Source of the DNA: Leucoraja ocellata
Lineage: Eukaryota
Assembly (NCBI GenBank): GCA_036785375.1
Contig: JAWMAR010000342.1
Coordinates: 1,426,001 to 1,490,000, forward strand
Direction: 5' to 3'
Length of the DNA: 64,000 nt
Within the stretch, counting starts at the first letter, position 1. Each line of letters begins with the position of its first letter. The notes under the pieces are model-generated. The model was not told the origin of the DNA, ran no database searches, and saw only the letters and a program-made list of their open reading frames with translations. A program made the translations under genes and the position numbers. Shown piece by piece: positions 15,301 through 55,683 of the stretch.

Positions 15301-16101
15301 ATAATAATAATAATAATATATTTTATTGTCATTGCACGTCAGTGCAACGAGATTTAGTATGCAGCTCCAACCGATGAAAAAGAAAAGTAAAATAAATAAA
15401 TAAGCTGTGTGTCGTGACCATCCGAGGGAGACAGTCCAGGGGGGGTGGAGGGCACTCAGCAGGGCCGGTTCAGAGCCGCTATAGCTCTTGGAATAAAGCT
15501 GTTTCTGAGTCTGGAGGTTCGGGTGTAGAAGGCCTTGTAATGTCTGCCGGAGGGAAGTAGTTCAAACGGTCCGTTACAGGGGTGTGATGAGTCTTTATGG
15601 ATGCTGACGGCCTTCCTGAGGCACCGTGTGTGGTAGATGCCCTCCAAGGCTGGTAACTCTGTCCCAATGATCCTCTGCGCTCTGTGGACGACGCGCTGAA
15701 GAGCTCTCCTCTTCGCCTCCGTGCAGCTGAGATACCACACAGAGATGCCATACGTTAATATGCTCTCTGTGGTGCAGCGGTAGAAGGTTGTCAGCAGCTG
15801 TTGGGGCAGACCAGTCTTTTTTAATGTCCTCAGGAAGAACAGTCGTTGCTGTGCCTTCTTGACCAGCGCAGCGGTGTTGGTGGACCATGTGAGGTCCTCT
15901 GAAATGTGAGTGCCCAGAAACTTAAAGCTGGACACTCTCGCCACACTTTCCCCGTAAATGGAGATTGGGGCGTATTCTCCATTATGGGACCTCCTGAAGT
16001 CAATAATCAGCTCCTTGGTCTTGGAGGTATTTAGTGACAAGTTGTTACGTGTACACCAGTCCGCCAGGTTCTGCACCTCCGCCTTGTATTTTGTTTCATC
16101 C
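15301..16101 (-). mobile_element. 5'-truncated Rex/Babar-like non-LTR retrotransposon (RT C-terminus)
   Basis: Uninterrupted ORF 15456-16115 with WCTRNNLSLNTSKTKELIIDFRR, FKFLGTHISEDLTW, KKAQQRLFFLR and TSRLRNSFIPRAI, plus a (TTA)n tail at 15301. Confidence 0.85.
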
Positions 16102-16773
16102 ATAGGATGAAACAAAATACTATTTTGCTATTTATGCAAAAGAAGAATCTTGAGTGGAAATGTAACAGTAGTTGGGAGTCTCTTTCTGAATCTTTTTTTA
16201 CCTGAGCCATTAGATACTGTATTTTTATTCTCAGTTGCTTTAGTCAAAGCTTCTGTGCAGATTCAAAGTACAAAGTGTAAGGGACATCTGAATGTGCATA
16301 AAGAAGTAATACAGGAATGAAAATATCAGTAAGTTTGCATTTCTTGTAGTGCAGACCATGCTAAGAGTTGGCATTTATGATGACAGTATTGTACAGAGGA
16401 GGAAGGTGGGTGAGGGAAAACAGAAGTCTCTTATGCAAGCTAGACCAAGATCTGTAAACAATGGGAGAATTGAAATGTATGTCGTGTTTTGTTTTGTAGT
16501 GGTGTAAAAAACATGCATACACTCAGATTAATTTCCAATTAATGAAGTCATATCTGTCATTTGTTTTATTTTTTATTATTGGTTTTAAATTGTCATTCCC
16601 ACCATCGTAGTATCAAAAATTAGCCTCTTCAGTATAAATTATTGTCTTGTAATTGTTTGTTGGTCAATTGTTGCTGAACGTGACATCCACAATTTATTTT
16701 ATAAGAAGAATATAATGAATTGTTTACAGAACTATATGCAACTTACTACAGTGTAATATTTCTGTTTAAACAG

Positions 16774-18254: not shown

Positions 18255-18471
18255 GGAAGGAACTACAGATGCTGGTTTATACCAAAGATAGACACAATGT
18301 GCTGGAGTAAATTAGAGGGTTAGGAAGCATCTCTGGAGAAAAAGGATGGGTGATATTTCAGACCCTTCTTCAGACTTTTCCCCTCTTCTGGAAAATTAAT
18401 CTTCCAACCCTTCATTTCTCTCCAGAGATGCTGCCTGACCCACTGAGTTACTCCAGCACTTTGTATCTATC
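18255..18471. mobile_element. two Penelope-like terminal repeats in inverted orientation
   Basis: 18255-18375 is a minus-strand copy and 18410-18471 a plus-strand copy of tctccagagatgctgcctgaccc..gagttactccagca. Confidence 0.75.
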
Positions 18472-20450: not shown

Positions 20451-20526
20451 AAACTCAGCGGGTGCAGCAGCATCTATGGAGCGAAGGAAATAGGCAACGT
20501 TTCGGGCCGAAACCCTTCTTCAGACT
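20451..20526 (-). mobile_element. young Penelope-like terminal repeat with hammerhead-like core
   Basis: 20451-20523 is the exact reverse complement of 33950-34022. Confidence 0.85.
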
Positions 20527-32138: not shown

Positions 32139-32229
32139 GCAATGTGGGTATACGATGAAGAAGTCGGTATGAACTTGAGGGATATTACCTTTGTTCCTGG
32201 CTTGTACAAAATATTTGATGAGATTCTAG
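32139..32229 (+). CDS. TOP2B: TOP2B exon 3
   Basis: ttcag|GCA...G|gtaag. Encodes AMWVYDEEVGMNLRDITFVPGLYKIFDEIL. Confidence 0.96.
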
Positions 32230-33059
32230 GTAAGCACTTTTTTTCCCCCACTTCAACTGCCATTTTAAGATAATTGTAGCGTGAAACTCGTCCAGTTGTT
32301 TGGAATTTCCAGTGGTTTGACATCTGGCTTCTGCATTAGTCTGGTACATGAGGTGGAGTCTTGAGTGCGAGATGAATGTAATACTGCAGGGCTCTAAATT
32401 AACGGTTGCCCGGGTGCCAATGACCGCCCAAAGTGCCGCCGGGCAACCTAAACGCCGAGTCATTTTGCCCGGCTTGGCACTGCAGATACTGGTTTATACC
32501 GAAGATAAACACAAAAAACTGGAGTAACTCAGCGGGTCAGGCAGCATCTCTGGAGAAAAGGAACGTGGCGTTTCGTGTCGGCAACAGCTGTATTGCGGGG
32601 CAAAGATATTAGGTGCGTGGTGACGAAGGGTTGGAGCGAATGACGGGCTCCGCACAGCGGCAGCAGCGGCTTCGATAGCGGCTCCAACTCCTCCTCCTCC
32701 CGCACCCCGCCCGCCCTGATAGCGGCCGCTGCCTGTAAATCCGCCAAAGGAGCTTTCAAAACAAACCCTCCCGCACGCCAAGGCCGGGGGGAAGGAGGCC
32801 TCATGCCGTCTGAAGCAGCTGCACCAAAGATCCTATAGCTGTAAGATCTTTGAGCTGCACTGCTCGGCCCCGCACCTTGCTGTTGGCTGGCGGAGAAGGG
32901 GAGGCGGTGGAGAGAAGATCCCAACCGCCTCTCCCTTTGGCGGTGGACAGGGACGGCCAAGGCAGGGGAGACACCCCCCTACATCCCCCTTATCCTGGGA
33001 CCCTTCCTCTCCATCCCGTGCTGATCACCCTATCCACCTCACATTGATTCTCCTGCCAC

Positions 33060-33500
33060 TCCTGCCACTGGTCCCCCAATTCATCCTGTACTTACCCCCA
33101 TTCCCATCCATCCTGCACTTCATTCATCCTGCACTGATCTGCCCATTCATCCCGTACTGACCCACCCTCTATTTACCCTGCACGATTCCCCCCCCCATCC
33201 ATCCTTCACTGATCCCCTCATTCATCCTGTACTGATCCCCTCATTCATCCTGTACTGATCCCCCACTCATCCTATACTGATCCCCTCATTCATCCAGTAC
33301 TGATCCTCCATTCATCTTTTATTGATCCCCCATTCATCTTTTACTGATCCACCCCGTCCATCCTGTACTTATCTCCTCATTCATCCTGTTCTCATCCCCC
33401 TCATTCATCCTGTACTGATCCCCCTCATTCATCCTTTACTGAACCCCCCATTCATCCTGTACTGATCCTCCCTTCCAACCCGTACTGATCCCCCCCCCAT
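33060..33500. repeat. ~20-bp minisatellite (CATTCATCCTGTACTGATCCCC)n inside the transposon
   Basis: Visible tandem units. Shorter versions occur at 50260-50440 and, on the minus strand, 54740-55030. Confidence 0.9.
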
Positions 33501-33950
33501 TCAACACCACTGACATCCCCCGTGCTCTCCCCTCGCAATTTTACATACTCCAACCAACACGTACTAATTCACCTCCCTCAATTCATCCATTCTGCACCGA
33601 TTGCCTTCTCAACCCCCCCCCCCCCCCCCCGCCATCTATCCACCCTGCACCGATTCACCCCCCCCGACCCCCGACCCTATTGTGCTGGAAATGTCTTCAG
33701 AGCGAACATTGACTATGTTTGATAACGGAATGCAATCAAATGTGGTTTAATTCCCAATGTTATTATTTGTTTTAGTCCATAAGGATGGATTAATTAAATT
33801 GTGAACATGTGAAACATTAAAACCGCAGTGTTTGATTGTCACTGCTACCGTTGACACGTTATTACAGAAATCATTTTAACAGCAAATCAATGCTCTTAAT
33901 ATGGAGTATCAGTACTGTAGTTATTTAACGAGCAACATTCACAACTATAC

Positions 33951-34043
33951 TGAAGAAGGGTTTCGGCCCGAAACGTTGCCTATTTCCTTCGCTCCATAGA
34001 TGCTGCTGCACCCGCTGAGTTTCTCCAGCTTTTTTGTGTAACC
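33951..34043 (+). mobile_element. 93-nt Penelope-terminal-repeat insertion with 13-bp TSD
   Basis: TTCACAACTATAC occurs at 33938-33950 and 34044-34056, and only once in the paralogous site near 54296-54310. Confidence 0.9.
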
Positions 34044-35129
34044 TTCACAACTATACGTTGGATTTATCCAAAGTTTTAATTCTACAGTCGGTCATATACA
34101 TCACAAATTTGGTCAGGAGATATTTCAGTTGAAATTTTAACGTTAATTCTGAAGCGGGAATGATGGAAACAGTGTTTATCAATAATTTTTTTTTAATCTG
34201 GTGCGTACAAACTGGGTATCATCATTGCTGTTCACAACACATACATCTAATCTGAATGTCCGGTAATGTGGGGTTTTGACACCTTTAAACATATTACCAA
34301 AAGAACATTGGCTGCAGTTATGTACTTTGGCCATCTCTTGTCAGTTAGTGTAATGTTTAACCTGTCAGATGGGTATTGTCGGTTTTAACAGCTAATATCA
34401 TAAAATGCCTTTAGAAATTTCCTTGCAACCTGCATATTTTGTTATGGATAAATAATGTGGGAAGTGGGAGTGTTTCTGTACCAATAGCAATAACGACCTA
34501 TGCTATGGCCATGTCATGGTAATTTTCGGTCCTTCACAGAAAATAATGCATGCATCAATCTGTGTAGTGTGCATGGTTAAGCACGTATGTTACCATGGTC
34601 CAGGATTTATTGACACAGGTTGATCATACGCTGAATAATCCAACCACATTTTTGTTTGGAAGTGGAAAGAGTTGAGATACTGTAGTATAATTTTGCTGCA
34701 TATCATTGTGGTATATATCATGTCTTGATTGGTGAATATGTTTAGTTTGTGACTATTTGAAGCAGAAATAATATGTGAATGCTTCATTGAGCATAATTCC
34801 GACTGGTAACTACGCACTTCGTCCGAGCACATTATCGCAAGCGTCATGCAAACCGTGTTAAATGATCACCTAAAATGTCATTTGGCAACCTAAAAAGCTG
34901 CCACGGTTGCCTGGCTGGCAACAGGGAAAAAAAGTTAAGTGAGAGCCCTGTACTGGGTGCTCAAGAAACTCAAGGCATCTAGAACAAAACAGCCCACTTG
35001 AGTGATATGAGCCACCATTAAATATAGGTGAAGTTGTGGAAGACTGCTGGCAAATGTTGTGCCTAGATTTATGAAGCGCTGCAAGGAAAAGCCTGGAACT
35101 ATAATAGGTCAGTAAATCTAACATCTATA

Positions 35130-36396: not shown

Positions 36397-36672
36397 TCCC
36401 TTCCAAGTTGCTACAACCCTGAACTTTAAATATTGCAGAGGTAGTCAATGGAGTAAAAAATTGGTGATTATCGCTACTTCATCAATGCTGAGTCAAAAAT
36501 GCTATCCAGTTGTACTTTTCAGTCTACTTTATTTTCAGTGGCTGGTAATGGTGATCTATTATAGTATAATGTATAAAATGAGGCAAAGATCATTCCCATT
36601 CAAATAAGTTATTATTTTATGTGTGGTAGATATTTTTAGCTGTATAAAAAAAGTGGCTTTGTTTTGTTTTAG

Positions 36673-36736
36673 TTAATGCAGCTGATAACAAGCAGAGGGA
36701 CAAGAACATGACCTGTATCAAAGTTTCAATTGATGT
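36673..36736 (+). CDS. TOP2B: TOP2B exon 4 (GHKL ATPase N box)
   Basis: tttag|TT...GT|gtaagt. Encodes (V)NAADNKQRDKNMTCIKVSID. Confidence 0.95.
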
Positions 36737-47195: not shown

Positions 47196-50100
47196 CGCTT
47201 ATCCCATTGTGATGTCATTGGCAGCTTATGTAAATGAGATCCTATTGTGATTGGACAACTATGAGATCCCATTGTGACGTCATAGCTACTAACTGCCAGA
47301 ATCTCCGATCCAGCTATTAAATATCAATTACTTGTGAAATATAACATCAAACTTGACACGAACGACCATGGGACAAAGGTGAGTAAAGTGGGTGGCAGCT
47401 GAGACCCCATTGTAATGTCATTGTCGGAATGTTCATGGCAGCGTATGTTAATGAGATTCCATTGTGATTGGAGGACTGTGAGACAGTGTTTCCACTTTGA
47501 AGGAAATTACCCGAAATTCGAGAAATTCTGGTTGTCTTTGGGCAATTTTAGGGAAATTAAATAATTACGAGGAATTTCCTGGCATGTGCGACTGCCGCCC
47601 CAACTGCACACGCACGGATCCAATCCGGCACGCGGGATGATTTGCAGGAAAAAAGTATGTACCCGTATACGACCATCTGTGCCTGCGCAGTTCGGGGACG
47701 CCTGTCAGCCGCGTCACAATTGAAAATGACTCCGGTGAGGCAGTACGGACGGCGTCTCCCCGCGAATGTGCTGTTGGACCGGTATCCGCGTATGCAAATA
47801 TAACACCAATCTGGTGAAATATAACATCAATCTAAACTAAACTTGATACAACCACAGGTCAATGGTGAGTAACGTGGTGCAAAAATGTTTGCGCTATTGT
47901 GTACCGTATTGGCGTAGATACTTGAGATTGCATGCAGACAGACAGACAGACGTCCAAACAAGACAAGACTTTTAGTAATATATAAACCAAGTGGGCCCCG
48001 TTCCCCCAACGCAATATTCCACCACTCACCCGTTCCCCCAACGCAACCCGTTTCCACTACTTACCCGTTCCCCCAACGCAATATTCCACCACTCACCCAG
48101 AGCCCTGGCGGGAGGCCTGGTCCCCCAACGCAACCAGTTCCCCAATGTAAGATTTCACCACTCCCCTGCCTCCCCCAGCACTGGACTTAAAATAAAAATT
48201 CCAATTACACTTCTCCTGCCTCTCCCAGCACTTCCAATTCCACTTCCCATGGCCCTTCCCCTCCTATTTAATCACTTGCTGCCAGGACCACGACTAAGTG
48301 TTCTATGATGGCAACATTGTTGCAAATATCGGGTGAAGGACTGTGAGATCCCATTGTGAAATTATAGCTGCAACTGCCAGCACTGAAGTGTTGAAGTGAA
48401 TTTAGTAAACTTAAAAACGTGATAACTTGTAAAATATAACATCAATGTGAACAAAACTTGATATAAACAACCACGTCAATGGTGAGTACGTGCTATTGTC
48501 TACTGTTTTGGAGTAGTTCCTTGAGCTCACTCAATCACAGACACACGCATACAAGACGAGACTTTTAGTTTTGAAATAGACTAAGTGGGACCCATTGGGT
48601 CCTAGCATCACACGGGAGGGCTGGTCCCCCAACGTAATATTCCACCTCTCCACCAATGGCAATATTGGTGGGGGGGTGGGGGGGCTTTCTGGAGCGCTAG
48701 TATGGACATTGTGGGCCGAATATATTCTTGGGCTGGCGGCTCAGTCACTCAAGCCTGCTATGCTGGCAGCTCACTCACGGCTGGTTGGCTGGCAGTTCAC
48801 TCACGGCTATTCCTTGAAATTCCATTTCAAGCAGGGTGCGAGGCCACCAAATTCAAGTGCAGTTTCTTACCACTTCAAGCAGGGTGCAAGGCCACCAAAT
48901 TCAAGTGCAGTTTCATACCATTTCAAGCAGGGTGCAAGGCCACTAAAGACAGCGAGTCGTGACCTCTCCCTCCTCCATCTAGCAGAGACTGAGCTACGCC
49001 CACACTTCTGGGTTTTATAGTCCCTCGCCCCTCCCACCAGAAGGGGCGTGGCGTTCATGGCATGATTGACAGGAGAGAGAATCGCAACATTTTTTAAACA
49101 CTGATAACTCTTTTATTTTTCATCGATGGGAAAAATCCTCGGCACCTGATTTCTAAAATCAATATAAAGCGCAAACAGGAAGTGGTCAAGATTAGACTTT
49201 TAATTATATAGAAGGCAAGGCAACTTTAATTAGGCAAGGCAACTTTAGACAATACAGCTTTAGCATATCCAAACCAAAGGCAACACAGCTTTAGCATTTC
49301 TAAATCAAAGGCAACACAGCTCTAGCATTTCCAAACTATATTTTCCAACTACATTAAGGACACTGACAGGTCAGTAAAACCACTCACAGTTTAGCAGACA
49401 TGTGTTCAGTGTTATTCACAGCTCAGGCTGAGAGACGTGACACTCTCGCTCCCCCATCTTGCAGGGACTGAATGAGGCACTCAACACTTCCGGGTTTTAT
49501 AGTCCAGGGTTCGAAATTAGCGGTTGCCCGTGTGCCATTGACCACCCAAAGTGCCTCCGGGCAACCTAAACGCCGACTCATTTTGCCCGGCTTGGCACGC
49601 AGGTTCTGATTTATACCGAAGATAGACACAAAAAAACTGTAATAACTCCGCGGGTCAGGCAGCATCTCTGGAGAAATGGAACGTGACGTTTCGTGTCGGC
49701 CACGGCTGTATTGCGGGGCAAAGATACCAGGTGCGGGGTGACGAAGGGTCGGAACAAATGACGAGCTCCGCACAACGGCAGCAGCGGCCGTGACTGCGGC
49801 TCCGTCTACTCCTCCTGCACTCTGCCCGCCCTGATAAGGGCCGCTGCTTGCAAATCCGCTAACGGCGCTTTCAAAACAAACCCTCCCTGCACGCCGAGGC
49901 AGGGAGGAGGAGGGGCAGGGGGAGGCCTCGGCATGCGGGAGGGTTTGTTTTGAAAGCGCCGTTAGCGGATTTGTAAGCAGCGGCCGCTATCAGGGAGGAG
50001 GAGGAGATGGAGCCGCTGTGCGGGGCCCGTCATTCGCTCCGACCCTTCTGAAGCAGCTGCACTGCTCTGCCCCGAACTTTGCTGTTGGCTGGCGGAGGAG

Positions 50101-50702
50101 GGGAGGCGGTGGCGAGGAGATCCCAACAGCCAAGGCAGCGGGGCGATGTTGTCCGAGGAGCGCTGGCCTTCCTTCCTCCCCACCTCGTCTCTCTCTCTCC
50201 CTCTCTCCCTCGCCCCCTCTCCTCCTCTCTCTCTCCTCTCCCTCTCTCTCTCTCCTCTCCATCCTGTACTGACCCACCCTCCATTTACCCTGCACCATCC
50301 CCTCATTCATCCTGTAGTGATCACCCATTCATCCTGCTCAGACCCTCCGATCCACACTGTACTGACCCACCCCCCCATTCATCCTGCGCTGATCTCTTTC
50401 CCCCCCCCCCCCCATCCATCCATCCAGTACTGATCCTCCCATTCAAGAAGAATGGGGGGAACAGTCTGAATAAAGGTCTCGGACCCGAAACAATGCCTAT
50501 TTCTTTTGATCCATAGATGCTGCATCACCCGCTGAGTTTCTCCTGCACGTTTGTCTATCCCTATCCATCCGTACTGAACCCGCCTATTCAACAGCACTGA
50601 CATCCCTCGTGCTCTTCCCTCACAATTTTACCTACTCCAACCATCACATACTAATTCACCTACCTCAATCCATCCATTCCGCCACCGATTGCCTTCTAAA
50701 CC

Positions 50703-50902: not shown

Positions 50903-52560
50903 TTTATGTTTCTATAAGATATCCCCACATCCTTCTAAACTCCAGTGAATACAAGCCTAGTCTTTTCAATCTCTCCTCATATGACAGTCCCGCCATCCCA
51001 GGGATCAATCTCGTGAACCTTCGCTGCACTGCCTCAACACAAGGATGTCCTTCCTCAAATTAGGAGACCAAAACTGTACACAATACTCCAGATCTCACCA
51101 GAGCCCTTTACAACTGCAGAGGAACCTCTTTACTCCTATACTGAAATCCTCTTGTTATGAAGGCCAACATTCCATTAGCTTTCTTCACTACCTGCTAAGC
51201 CAACTTTCAGTGACCAGTGTACAAGGATGCCCAGGTCTCACTGCACCCCCCCCCCCCCTTACCTAACCTAACCCTATTGAGATAATAATCTGCCCCCTTG
51301 TTTTTGCCGCCAAAGTGGATAACCTCACATTTACCTATATTATACTGCATCTGCCCACTCACTCAACTTGTCCAGGTCACCCTGCAACCTCCTAACATCC
51401 TCTTCACAGTTCACACTGCCACCCAACTTTGTGTCATCCGCAAACTTGCTAGTGTTGCTCCTAATTCCCTCTTCCAAATCATTAATATATATGATAAACA
51501 GTTGCGGCCTCAACACCGAGCCTTGCGGCACTCCACTCGCCACTGCCTGACATTCTGAAAAGGACCCGTTCACTCCTACTCTTTGCTTCCGGTCTGCTTG
51601 CCAATTTTCTATCCATGTCAACACCCTACCCCCAATACCATGTGCTCTAATTTTAGTCACCAGTCTCTCGTGTGGGACCTTATCAAAGGCTTTCTGAAAG
51701 TCTAGATACACTACATCCACTGGCACCCCTTCATCCATTTTACTTGTCACATCCTCAAAAAATTCCAGAAGATTAGTCAAGCATGATTTCCCTTTCATAA
51801 ATCCATTTTGACTTGGACTAATCCTTTTACTGCTATCCAAATGCCCCATTATTACCTCTTTAATAATTGACTCCAGCATCTTTCCCACTACCGAAGACAG
51901 GCTAAATGGTTTGTAATTCCCCGTTTTCTCTCTCGCTCCTTTCTTGAAAAGTGGGATAACATTAGTTATCCTCCAATCCACAGGAACTGACCCTGAATCT
52001 ATTGAACATTGGAAAATGATCATCAATGCGTCCACTATTCCTAGACCCACCTCCCTGAGGACCCTGGGATGCAGACCATCAGGCCCAGGGGATTTATCAT
52101 CCTTCAGTCCCATTAGCCTACCCAATACTATTTCTCGCCAAATGAAAATTTCTTTCAGTTCCTCTACCCCCTTAGTTCCTCTGTCCTCCAGTACATCTGG
52201 GAGATTGTTTGTGTCTTCCTTAGTGAAGACAGATCAGAAGTACCTATTCAACTCTTCTGCCATTTCCTTGTTGCCCATAATAATTTCACCCCTGTCTGCT
52301 TTCAAGGGACCCACATTTGACTTTGCTACTCTTTTTCCCTTAACATATCTAAATAAGCTTTTACGGTCCTTATTTATATTCCTGGCCCGCTTCCCTTCAT
52401 ACTACTTCTTTTCAGCCCGTATTGCCCATTTTGTTTCCTTCTGTTGACCTACGAAAGTTTCCCAATCCTCTGTCTTCCGGCTACTCTTTGCTGTGTTATA
52501 CATCTTTTCATTTAGTTTTATTCAATCCCTGACTTTTCTTGTCAGCCACGGTTGCCTTCT
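50903..52560 (-). mobile_element. CR1-type LINE ORF2 (RT) fragment
   Basis: ORF 51340-52125 with KSPGPDGLHP, YLDFQKAFDKVPH, SGVPQGSVL and KFADDTKL, with frameshifts around it. Confidence 0.92.
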
Positions 52561-54203
52561 AAAAGGCTGACAAGACAAGATAACCCAACCACATTTTAGT
52601 TTGGAAGTGGAAAGAACTAATAGAAATTGCATTAATTGCAATGTGTAAAAAGAGTTGAGATATTGTCTTATCATTTTGCTGCATGTCATTGTGGGATATA
52701 TCATGTCTTGATTGGTGAATACTTTTAGTTTGTGACATTATTTGAAGCAGAAATAATATGTGAATGCTTCATTGAGCATAATTCCGACTGGTAACTACGC
52801 ACTTCGGCTGAGCACATTATCGCACGCGTCATGCAAGCAGTCTTAAATGACCACCTAAACTATCATTTGGCAAACTAAAAAGCTGCCAAGGTTGCCCGGC
52901 TGGCAACAGGGAAAAAAAGTTAAGTGAGAGCCTTGTAGTCCCTCCGGAAGGGGCGTGGCCTTCAGGATAGAGAATCTCAACTTTTATTAAACACTAATAA
53001 CTTTTATTTTTCATCGATGGGGAAAAATCCTCTTGTGCTGCGCAGCGGAGGGGGACTCTGAGTAAGATGGCCAAAAATCACAGCCGTAAGTGGCAGCGTT
53101 ATTTCTACAATCAATATATAGAACAACAGGAAGTGGTCAACATCAGACTTTTAGTAATATACTAGACCAAGTGCAGACCCGTTGGGTCTGTTCCCCCAAC
53201 GTGTGGTTGTGGGTGGGGGGAGGCGGCATGCAGCGTCACACACTAACTACCCCCCCCCTCTCGCACTCACGCTAATGGAGGGGAGGGGGAGAGAGGGAGG
53301 GAGGGGGGGAGAGGGGGGGGAGAGAGGGGGTGGAAGAGAGAGGGAGGAGGAGAGGGGGGAGGGAGGGGGGGAGAGGGAGGAGGGGGGGGGGGGGAGAGAG
53401 AGTGCCTTTTTACTTCAACCCAAACCCAAACAGCTATTTGCAGGCAGTGCTTTTTTACCTCTAACTATATTTTCATTTTCAAACCAAATTAAGGGTACTC
53501 ACAGTGCTGTAGACATTTGTCAGTGTCATTCAAAGCTCTGATTGAGGCACACCACTTGCAGAGACTGATTGAGGCACACCCTTTCCTGGTTTTATAGTCG
53601 CTCCCCCTCCCTCCAGCAGGGGCAGCAGAGAGAATGGGGAATGTTGTAAAAACATTAATATCTCTGTCAATTTTCATCGATGGGAAAAGTCCTCGGCACA
53701 CACGCGGCGGAGGGGGGCTCTGAGCGAGGTGGCCAAAAATGACGGCCGTAGGTGGCGGCGTACTCTCGGAAACCGCAGCACAGAAAGCCGAAACCGGTCA
53801 AGAACAGAGTTTTAGTAATATAGATACTAGACCAAATTCAAACCCACTGGGTCTGTTCCCCCCAACGCTGAGGCTGCACATGCACACTAACCAGATGGGT
53901 GGGGGGGGGGGGGAAGGGAGGGGGGATGGGGAGGGGCAGAGAGGGGGAGGGGGAGAGAGGGTGGTGGGAGGAAGGAGGAGGAGATGGGGAGAGGGGAGGA
54001 GGAGATGGAGAGAGGGAGAGGATGAAGGGTGGAGATGTGGGAGAGATTGGGGAGGGGAACAGGGGGGGGAAGGGAGAGAGTGGGGAATGGGGAGGAGAGG
54101 AAAGCGGGAAGGGGAGAGGGGTGGGGGAGGGGATGTGAGAGGGGTGGAGAGAGGGGGAGGGGGAGGGGGGAAGGGGGAGAGATGGGTGGAGGGGGAGAGG
54201 GGT

Positions 54204-55683
54204 CAGAATTAACATTAAAATTTCAATTGAAATATCTCCTGACCAAATTTGTGATGCATATGACCGACTAGAAGTAAAACCTGGATAAATCTTACCGAAT
54301 AGTTGTGAATGTTGCTCATTAAATAACTACAGTACTGATACTCCATATTAAGAGCATTGATTTGCCATTAAAATGATTTCTGTAATAACGTGTCAACAGT
54401 AGCAGTGACAATCGAACACTGCGGTTTTAATGTTTCACGTGTTCACAATTTAATTAATCCATCTTTATGGACTAAAACAAATAATAACATTGGGAATTAA
54501 ACCACATTTGATTGCATTCCATTATCAAACATTGTCTATGTTCACTCTGAAGACATTTCCAGCGCAGTAGGGTCGGGGAGGGGGGGGGGGGGGGGTGAAT
54601 CGGTGCGGGATGGATAGATGGGGGGGGGGGGGGGGGTGAGAAGGCAATCGTTGTGGGATGGATGGATTGATTGAGGCAGGGGAATTAGTGCATGGTGGTT
54701 GGAGTAGGTAACATTGTGAGAGGAAAGCGCGGGGGATGTCAGTGGGGATCAGTACAAGATAGATGGGGGGGATCGATACAGGATGGGTGGAGGGGTTTAG
54801 TACAGGATGAATGCGGGGAATCAGTACAGGATGAATGTGAGGATCAGTACAGGATGGATTGGGGAGGGGGGGGTCAGTGCATGATGAATGGGGGGAATCA
54901 GTACAGGATGAATGGGGAGCAGTGCAGGATGGATGGGTAGGGGGGTCAGTACAGGATGAATTGGGGCACCAGTGTAGGAAGGATGGGGTGTGGCAGGAGA
55001 ATCAATGCGAGGTGGATAGGGTGATCAGTGCAGGATGGAGAGGAAAGGTCCCAGGATAAGGGGGGTGTACAAGAGAGAGAGAGAGAGAGAGAGAGGGTGG
55101 GGAGGAAGGAAGGTCAGCGCTCCGTGGACATCACCGGCATCATCGCCCCGCTGCATTGGCCGTCCGTGTCCACCGCCAAGTGCCGCCGCCAAAAGGGGAG
55201 GCAGTTGGAATCTCCTTGCCACCCCCTCCCCACCTCTGTCACCAACAGGAAGGTGCGGGGCCGAGCGGTGCAGGTGCTTCAGGTGGCGGAAGGGGGCCTC
55301 CTCCCTCCTCCCATCCTCGGCGTGCGGGAGGGTTTGTTTTGAATGCAGTTATCGCAGTTGGTGGAGTGGCACGCAGCGGCTGCTATGAGGGCGGGCATGG
55401 TGCAGGAGGAGGTGGAGCCGCCACTGCTGCCGTGCGGGCCTGTCATTCGCTCGGACCCTCCGTCACCTCGCATTACAGCCATCACCGCCGCCGACCAGAA
55501 ACACCACTTATTCCTTTTCTCCAGAGATGCTGCCTGACCCGTTGAGTTACACCAGTTTTTTGTGTCTACGGTATAAACCAGTATCTGCAGTATCAAGCCA
55601 GGCGAAATGACAGGGCTTTTAGGTTGCCCGGCGGGACTTTAGGTGGCCATTGGCACCCGGGCAACTGTTAATTTTGAGCCCTG
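54204..55683 (-). mobile_element. truncated copy 4 of the CAGGGCTC transposon
   Basis: Ends ...gttaattttgagccctg at 55683 and is the reverse complement of 32387-34150 without the 93-nt insertion. Confidence 0.85.

Follow-up and report, generated by a model that had tools for sequence, protein, structure and literature searches.

A 93-nt insert lying between two TOP2B exons of Leucoraja ocellata is the end piece of a young, very common autonomous Penelope-like retrotransposon and not a separate element, which makes it ordinary transposon debris in an intron. It probably arose when reverse transcriptase (RT), primed inside the element's RNA, copied the end of the pLTR (+1/+2 to +94), ran off the 5' end of that RNA, and the product was integrated.

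The insert and its surroundings

The insert was studied in a 64,000-nt stretch of DNA, hereafter the window. Element positions are counted from the C of CTGAAGA (+1, window 33950). The main features are:

32139..32225, + strand: TOP2B exon upstream of the insert (peptide match, human TOP2B residues 82-109)
33938..33950, + strand: left TSD copy, whose last C doubles as hammerhead core position +1
33951..34043, + strand: insert, tailless at its 3' end, corresponding to pLTR +2..+94 of a putative Neptune-type Penelope-like element
34044..34056, + strand: right TSD copy, whose first three bases (TTC) equal the element's next bases (priming microhomology)
36672..36734, + strand: TOP2B exon downstream of the insert (peptide match, human TOP2B residues 111-131)
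54297..54309, - strand: unfilled site of a paralogous host copy (one mismatch)
20451..20526, - strand: another young stub, from -3 to a break at +73

The 13-nt repeat TTCACAACTATAC occurs at 33938-33950 and 34044-34056 and brackets the 93 nt of the insert (33951-34043). With up to one mismatch, this site has three matches against 0.11 expected, the third being a single site (54297-54309, minus strand, TTCACAACTATTC) in a paralogous host repeat that has no insert. The initial annotation had proposed a duplication-flanked insert with an empty paralogue in the same window, and positions and site matches bear this out, as they do its remark that the last C of the left TSD completes CTGAAGA. The boundaries are ambiguous, since both target and element are matched by TTC on the 3' side and by C on the 5' side. 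The insert lies in sense orientation between two consecutive TOP2B exons, as annotated; the peptide matches confirm the intron, which is presumably number 3.

The window contains 14 other matches to the family. The annotation had seen several solo copies beginning near CTGAAGA, which holds for two of the 14 (20451-20526 and 50463-50560). The copy at 50463 and four 3' fragments (32509, 35859, 49626, and 55511) are located within host-transposon copies, and since inserts at the position of the former recur in other host copies, the window copies inside host transposons likely travelled with their host. The window also carries a head-to-head pair of the older family (18301-18457), a hairpin with weak scores to Rfam miRNA families, and RT reading-frame fragments of other retrotransposons at 15459-16127 (minus strand) and 51343-52233 (minus strand), which we take to be LINE-like.

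The parent element

An internal 33-mer of the insert has 76,260 exact matches in the 3.44-Gb genome. Long copies extend upstream into an ORF with an RVT_1 domain (E 5e-5) plus a GIY-YIG domain at the C terminus (PF01541, E 6e-4), both below the Pfam curated cut-offs. The RT domain lies upstream of the pLTR on the same strand, a YIDD motif is present in four copies (L014, L078, L085, and L089), and the translations contain a CX4CxxC linker motif (CNRKRCNTC). According to the accessible text of PMC8557442, an element with a CX2-5CxxC motif between its RT and EN is a Neptune or Nematis element; judged by this motif, which Nematis also has, the parent appears to be a Neptune-type EN+ Penelope-like element. 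Further Penelope traits are partial tandems, inverted 5' copies, and a one-sided tail of 30-40 nt (L167, L173, L331, and L333). In the partial tandems L167 and L173, the sequence runs via a tail of ~35 nt into the 5' UTR, with a likely ATG at +167. The annotated origin from a Penelope RT/GIY-YIG element and the reading as a pLTR piece are thereby supported.

The exact 93-mer terminates many ORF-bearing copies (e.g. L003, L014, L081, and L089), and sequence variants are common to short and long copies in both sub-families, which identifies the insert as a pLTR stub and not as a lineage of its own.

Ends of the copies

The end sample comprised the first 100 listed 33-mer matches, on contig C1 up to 6.03 Mb, of which 99 were retrieved; after removal of ten segmental duplicates (nine by script, L047/L060 by eye), 89 copies remained. 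Starts fell in -6..+1 in 31 copies (12 at -2, four at +1), in +2..+11 in 17, in +12..+41 in eight, and in -12..-7 in two, while the remaining 31 started between -28 and -1576, two long ones being truncated by the locus edge. Thus, 31 of the 64 copies reaching +1 end within 7 nt. The mode is -2, two nucleotides before the core, and not the predicted hammerhead cut at +28/+29. When another 100 short copies were scored by eye, -2 was again most frequent (27 rows, 25 unique), followed by -3 (13), -5 (7-10), -4 (7), +1 (4-8), and -1 (5), and eight rows were internal 33-nt duplications. Genome-wide, matched junction patterns gave 1146 hits at -2 vs. 213 at +9. Of 30 copies with a start at -2, six adjoin the TSD without filler. 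The sampled and genome-wide counts agree with the annotated idea of a defined, non-random 5' end; a start exactly at the core does not hold, because the family mode lies 2 nt upstream and the focal copy is 2-3 nt shorter, with a join of 1-nt microhomology. Between 0.2 and 2.8 Mb of the sampled contig (G000:C1), ten insertions are duplicated with near-identical flanks in mostly mirrored order, which suggests either a sizeable inverted duplication or an artefact of the assembly.

The 3' ends fall at ~+94 in 56/90 and at ~+130 in 34/90 copies. Among 96 tailless copies, an in-range TSD could be identified for 44 and measures 13-16 nt in 36 of these 44, so that the duplications, whose lengths the annotation had proposed to survey, occur in other copies as well. 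Microhomology at the 3' junction averages 1.55 nt in the 44 copies vs. 0.66 nt by chance, and the highest of 2000 null means was 1.23; no strong target consensus emerged from the 44 sites. In 17 of 19 head-to-head pairs, a single arm is tailed; two tailed arms occur in none. Junctions of inverted copies at -5 are clearly shaped by the palindrome TCAG-T-CTGA, which is centred at -1.

ORF-bearing copies lack the pile-up at -2: among ~12 that reach +1, a small and partly selected sample, two start in -6..+2 and nine carry long upstream pLTRs. A splice of the ORF end to the acceptor-like site CAG/TCTG was considered and found neither in the loci examined nor in the RNA joints shown.

In four RNA runs from 2026 under the same species label, stubs occur inside other transcripts and coverage past the tail is low; all four contain loose ends at -2, whose flanks are mixed. 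No start or end point of a molecule was seen among the rows shown, although such points would be hard to see in oligo-dT or single-cell libraries. Likewise, no joint of a circular or unit-length RNA was seen in the rows shown from these four poly(A)/single-cell runs, library types unsuited to the purpose.

The hammerhead motif

The insert begins inside a putative ribozyme:

33950..33979, + strand: minimal type I hammerhead motif, by sequence, with an architecture as in the accessible part of PMC4209133

The motif consists of CUGAAGA, an extra A, helix II (GGGU-UUCG-GCCC), GAAA, and a palindromic ACGU, with a predicted cut after +28 (33977, GUU). It has the core boxes, the extra base after position 9, the G10.1-C11.1 pair, the palindromic 15.2-16.2, and the NUH triplet of a minimal type I hammerhead. 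Helix II is closed by U-G in the young family and by U-A in older ones. Helix I comprises just 2 bp in intact copies (-1 with +29 and -2 with +30) and is missing from the focal stub, where target DNA (TA) replaces its 5' strand at -1 and -2. The focal hammerhead therefore likely cannot cleave and, judging from its sequence, is likely a dead passenger. A search of the window against Rfam gave no hammerhead, the insert folds no better than shuffled sequences (z 0.42), and the best folds of insert monomer and dimer differ from a hammerhead. Type III or trans cleavage at the AUC/GUC near -2 was dismissed on inspection, as the required helices are unpaired. A 33-34-nt internal duplication of helix II-GAAA recurs in L201, L206, L212, and RNA joints, usually beside an inverted junction.

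Permuted arrays

The junction of tail and UTR has 172 exact matches in the genome. We fetched 70 loci, counting overlaps and duplicates, which cover most of the first 100 matches, and found 50 distinct loci with the permuted form [..q][p..+94 or +130], in which the ORF start is rejoined to the pLTR; the rest comprise ~11 ORF-bearing copies and a few unclassed loci. The end q lies in +164..+300 in 48/50 junctions, 16 of them at +262..+271. The start p lies in -283..+57 in 49/50, with six at -4..+3 and three at +29/+30. Because p is upstream of -13 (at -17 or beyond) in 40/50, templates spanning -2 exist. Units measure 163-546 nt (48/50 junctions), mostly each with its own junction.

Arrays of two to four units are found within single insertions, e.g. 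L339 (G000:C205:4.35 Mb), L340, L341, and L343 (of the set L309-L378). An identical junction is repeated up to four times per insertion in L339, L340, and L341, and is shared by both inverted arms in L315, L324, L336, and L341. This recurrence suggests a circular or terminally redundant template. Regarding the search for tandem arrays proposed in the annotation, head-to-tail arrays do exist elsewhere in the genome, with longer units. The permuted arrays look like retrozymes in the making. The focal insert itself is a single incomplete unit and lacks the head-to-tail repeats with complete hammerheads of non-LTR retrozymes.

What sets the 5' end

In the mechanism that we favour, RT would start at two internal sites, ~+94 and ~+130, close to the RNA 5' end where pLTR and ORF meet, as modelled on the anole Poseidon element. 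The target would receive a staggered cut of ~13-16 nt and priming would use 1-3 nt of target-RNA microhomology, both of which are reflected in the genomic junctions. The peak at -2/-3 would be where the RNA physically ends, with transcription start at the initiator-like TCAGTCT as the most likely origin. The run-off cDNA could then be joined to the target, giving a stub like the focal insert, could pair head-to-head with a second cDNA, giving inverted copies, or could transfer to the homologous 3' pLTR and continue into the ORF, giving long copies.

The permuted arrays provide a control, in which passes over +1 beyond the first array unit were counted by eye. Only 1/26 array passes stop in -6..+1 vs. 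31/64 ordinary copies (Fisher P 2e-5), or 1/21 when counted per locus (P 2e-4). Restricted to single-junction loci, the control is weaker (1/11, P 0.02; 2/11 counting -7, P 0.10), and arrays might have grown as DNA, which would weaken it as well. The rarity of stops in array passes indicates that the peak is likely a physical RNA end, probably a transcription start, and unlikely to be a pause. We take TCAGTCT to fit the initiator consensus (YYANWYY, TCAKTY). In line with this, pLTRs contain a start site or promoter in Penelope and Chlamys, as described in the accessible portions of PMC2377424 and PMC8557442. The start mode of -2 is one base off the initiator A (-3), which counts against reading it as a transcription start. 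No excess of G precedes -2 (G 33, T 45, and C 22 of 100 rows; ~31% expected, P 0.67) and hence there is no trace of a copied cap. A cap-G signal in an earlier sample (16/25 G), which included many inverted or micro-duplicated junctions, was discarded when the cleaner sample gave 33/100.

The negative cap-G result, the one-base offset, and the missing peak in ORF-bearing copies leave some room for RNA processing as the origin of the end at -2, a reading that we consider rather unlikely. Here, a 5'-3' exonuclease would trim the RNA to a protein-bound hammerhead, or a nuclease would cut it. The position -2 is the first base of the 2-bp helix I (U-G/G-C), the permuted junctions reveal RNAs reaching far upstream, and the 3' limit is clustered at +262..+271, as expected from a protein-protected fragment. 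Against processing speak the fit of TCAGTCT to the initiator consensus, the start sites in the pLTRs of the elements named above, and the weak hammerhead fold, which would be a poor barrier alone.

Considerably less probable is a separate non-autonomous unit of ~93-130 nt, SINE- or retrozyme-like, with its own master and mobilised in trans, as the initial annotation had suggested. Short copies do number in the tens of thousands, with sharp ends and TSDs, motif-bearing head-to-tail arrays exist in the genome, and non-LTR retrozymes derive from pLTRs according to the accessible text of 10.64898/2026.07.22.740005. Yet a master lineage did not appear, as ORF-bearing copies end in the identical 93-mer and variants are common to short and long copies in both sub-families; an array of 93-nt units was met in none of 378 loci read for other purposes, and the arrays that exist have the longer units and mostly individual junctions described above.

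A still more improbable explanation is that RT, working on ordinary long templates, pauses at a sequence or structure such as the TCAG-T-CTGA palindrome or the C-rich tract. The palindrome's effect on inverted junctions is in its favour, but permuted arrays were copied across the same sequence with a stop in 1/26, and TSD-to-GT joins are blunt.

That the hammerhead cut sets the end of the unit is hardly credible and, for the focal stub, is refuted by position, since the cut lies 28-31 nt downstream of the start of both this insert and the main peak; simple stubs have no peak at the cut site in a 100-row junction sample covering +18..+35, where two or three junctions at +29 were found among ~40 informative rows (~60 rows having been removed as anchor-matched inversions, duplications, or variants), and cleavage is unnecessary for insertion in vitro as far as PMC11167929 could be consulted. 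Starts at +29/+30 do exceed expectation among the permuted junctions (3/50 vs. 0.29, P 0.003), L037 of the older sub-family starts there too, L343 is a TSD-flanked two-unit array from +29, and both arms of L033 begin at +29; these few loci indicate that a minority of templates may be ribozyme-cut.

Returning to run-off at the RNA 5' end, we tentatively extend it to a full cycle, which is possible but not the likelier case. In this cycle, internal priming near the RNA 5' end would yield a strong-stop cDNA of 95-130 nt that is integrated or strand-transferred to the 3' pLTR, and small, circularised, protein-protected RNAs would be copied round and round into retrozyme-like tandem arrays, de novo and one insertion at a time. 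The circularised fragments would mostly end ~100 nt into the ORF, and a few would be opened by the hammerhead.

A re-used target site

The insert is located in a host repeat:

32387..34950, + strand: host repeat, non-coding and DNA-transposon-like, 2.56 kb, with ends CAGGGCTC...GAGCCCTG

The focal host copy has TACTG on either side. Further copies with CAGGGCTC ends lie in the window from 35734 onward, at 49400-50700, and at 54200-55600. Close to its left end, the host repeat contains an old pLTR fragment in antisense, and a second stub (50463-50560) is present in one of its sub-families. The 21-mer of the target site has 619 exact matches in the genome and is filled in 1/30 of those fetched, and a junction search returned eight matches, seven of them at the focal host site:

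Window 33938-34056: focal stub
L151: stub similar to the focal one
L152: 720-nt copy, older type
L154: tiny fold-back
L155: inverted pair
L156: 71-nt copy
L158: inverted copy, left flank lost

Seven inserts at one site compare with <0.1 by chance. Five of them retain both repeats, and all five have ...ACTATAC as their right boundary; the target AACATTC is similar to the RNA priming site AACCTTC. A re-used site with a fixed boundary that resembles the priming site points to a fixed target cut and a 1-nt join, and not design, as the source of the C that completes the core. A single origin of these inserts through amplification of the host was rejected, because their lengths, sub-families, and architectures differ and the filled copies do not form one clade in a poorly resolved tree; L151 and the focal copy, with flanks 94.7% alike, may share one origin. 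As a single case, three bases (+26..+28) are missing from the insert of L156, precisely where the cut is predicted. The re-used site is a natural replicate in which the target sets the cut and the form of the insert varies.

Relation to known systems

The following comparisons hold as far as the accessible text of the cited papers describes each system. The parent resembles EN+ Neptune-type PLEs (PMC8557442) in having RT followed by a C-terminal GIY-YIG, a CX4CxxC linker, and a hammerhead in the pLTR, as well as in its heavily 5'-truncated copies, partial tandems, inverted 5' copies, and a 30-40-nt tail at one end. It differs in that about two-thirds of the sampled copies are non-coding stubs (start at -12 or later) and in the sharp 5' peak. 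As in target-primed reverse transcription (TPRT) by Anolis carolinensis Poseidon in vitro (PMC11167929), two internal RT starts, a tail apart, would match the 3' ends seen in the genome, the two strands of the target would be cut and extended, and a dispensable hammerhead lies ~100 nt upstream. The Poseidon priming site is non-homologous to the target and its ORF starts inside the hammerhead (PMC11167929), whereas here there are 1-3 nt of microhomology, a re-used site resembling the priming site, and a likely ATG ~35 nt past the tail.

Metazoan PLE hammerheads (PMC4209133) share CUGANGA, the unpaired base after position 9, G10.1-C11.1, the palindromic 15.2-16.2, and an occurrence mostly as single dispersed motifs or opposite-strand pairs; in contrast to them, helix I here has 2 bp when intact and is absent in the stub, and the young sub-family has a GUU triplet. 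Non-LTR retrozymes (PMC7229834; 10.64898/2026.07.22.740005) likewise have a type I hammerhead, a PLE origin, and long TSDs, with a unit size similar to that of the permuted arrays. Unlike them, the focal insert is monomeric, with an incomplete ribozyme and no lineage of its own, and the arrays are mostly not cut-to-cut.

Retroviral minus-strand strong-stop DNA arises by priming near the RNA 5' end and run-off, and a terminal repeat allows its transfer. By analogy, the product proposed here would be similar, but target-primed instead of tRNA-primed, so that the short product can integrate; transfer would again be the step leading to long copies.

Solo pLTRs, tails, inverted copies, and dispersed minimal hammerheads have been published (PMC3846280, PMC4209133), as has the PLE origin of retrozymes (10.64898/2026.07.22.740005, PMC7229834), again by the accessible text of these sources. 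Among the listings of a literature search over papers free of subscription, and in the papers cited here, there was no account of a sharp 5' peak or of strong-stop stubs.

Implications

The steps after internal priming were left unvalidated in PMC11167929, as far as its accessible text goes, and the family statistics bear on them, that is, on how Penelope-like elements rebuild the pLTR and their tandem or inverted structure. With ~76,000 near-identical copies, this young family offers testable coordinates, namely an RNA start at -3/-2, RT starts at ~+94 and ~+130, a protected 3' limit at ~+267, and a cut at +28/+29. Finally, the permuted arrays represent a possible route by which retrozymes may arise from pLTRs.
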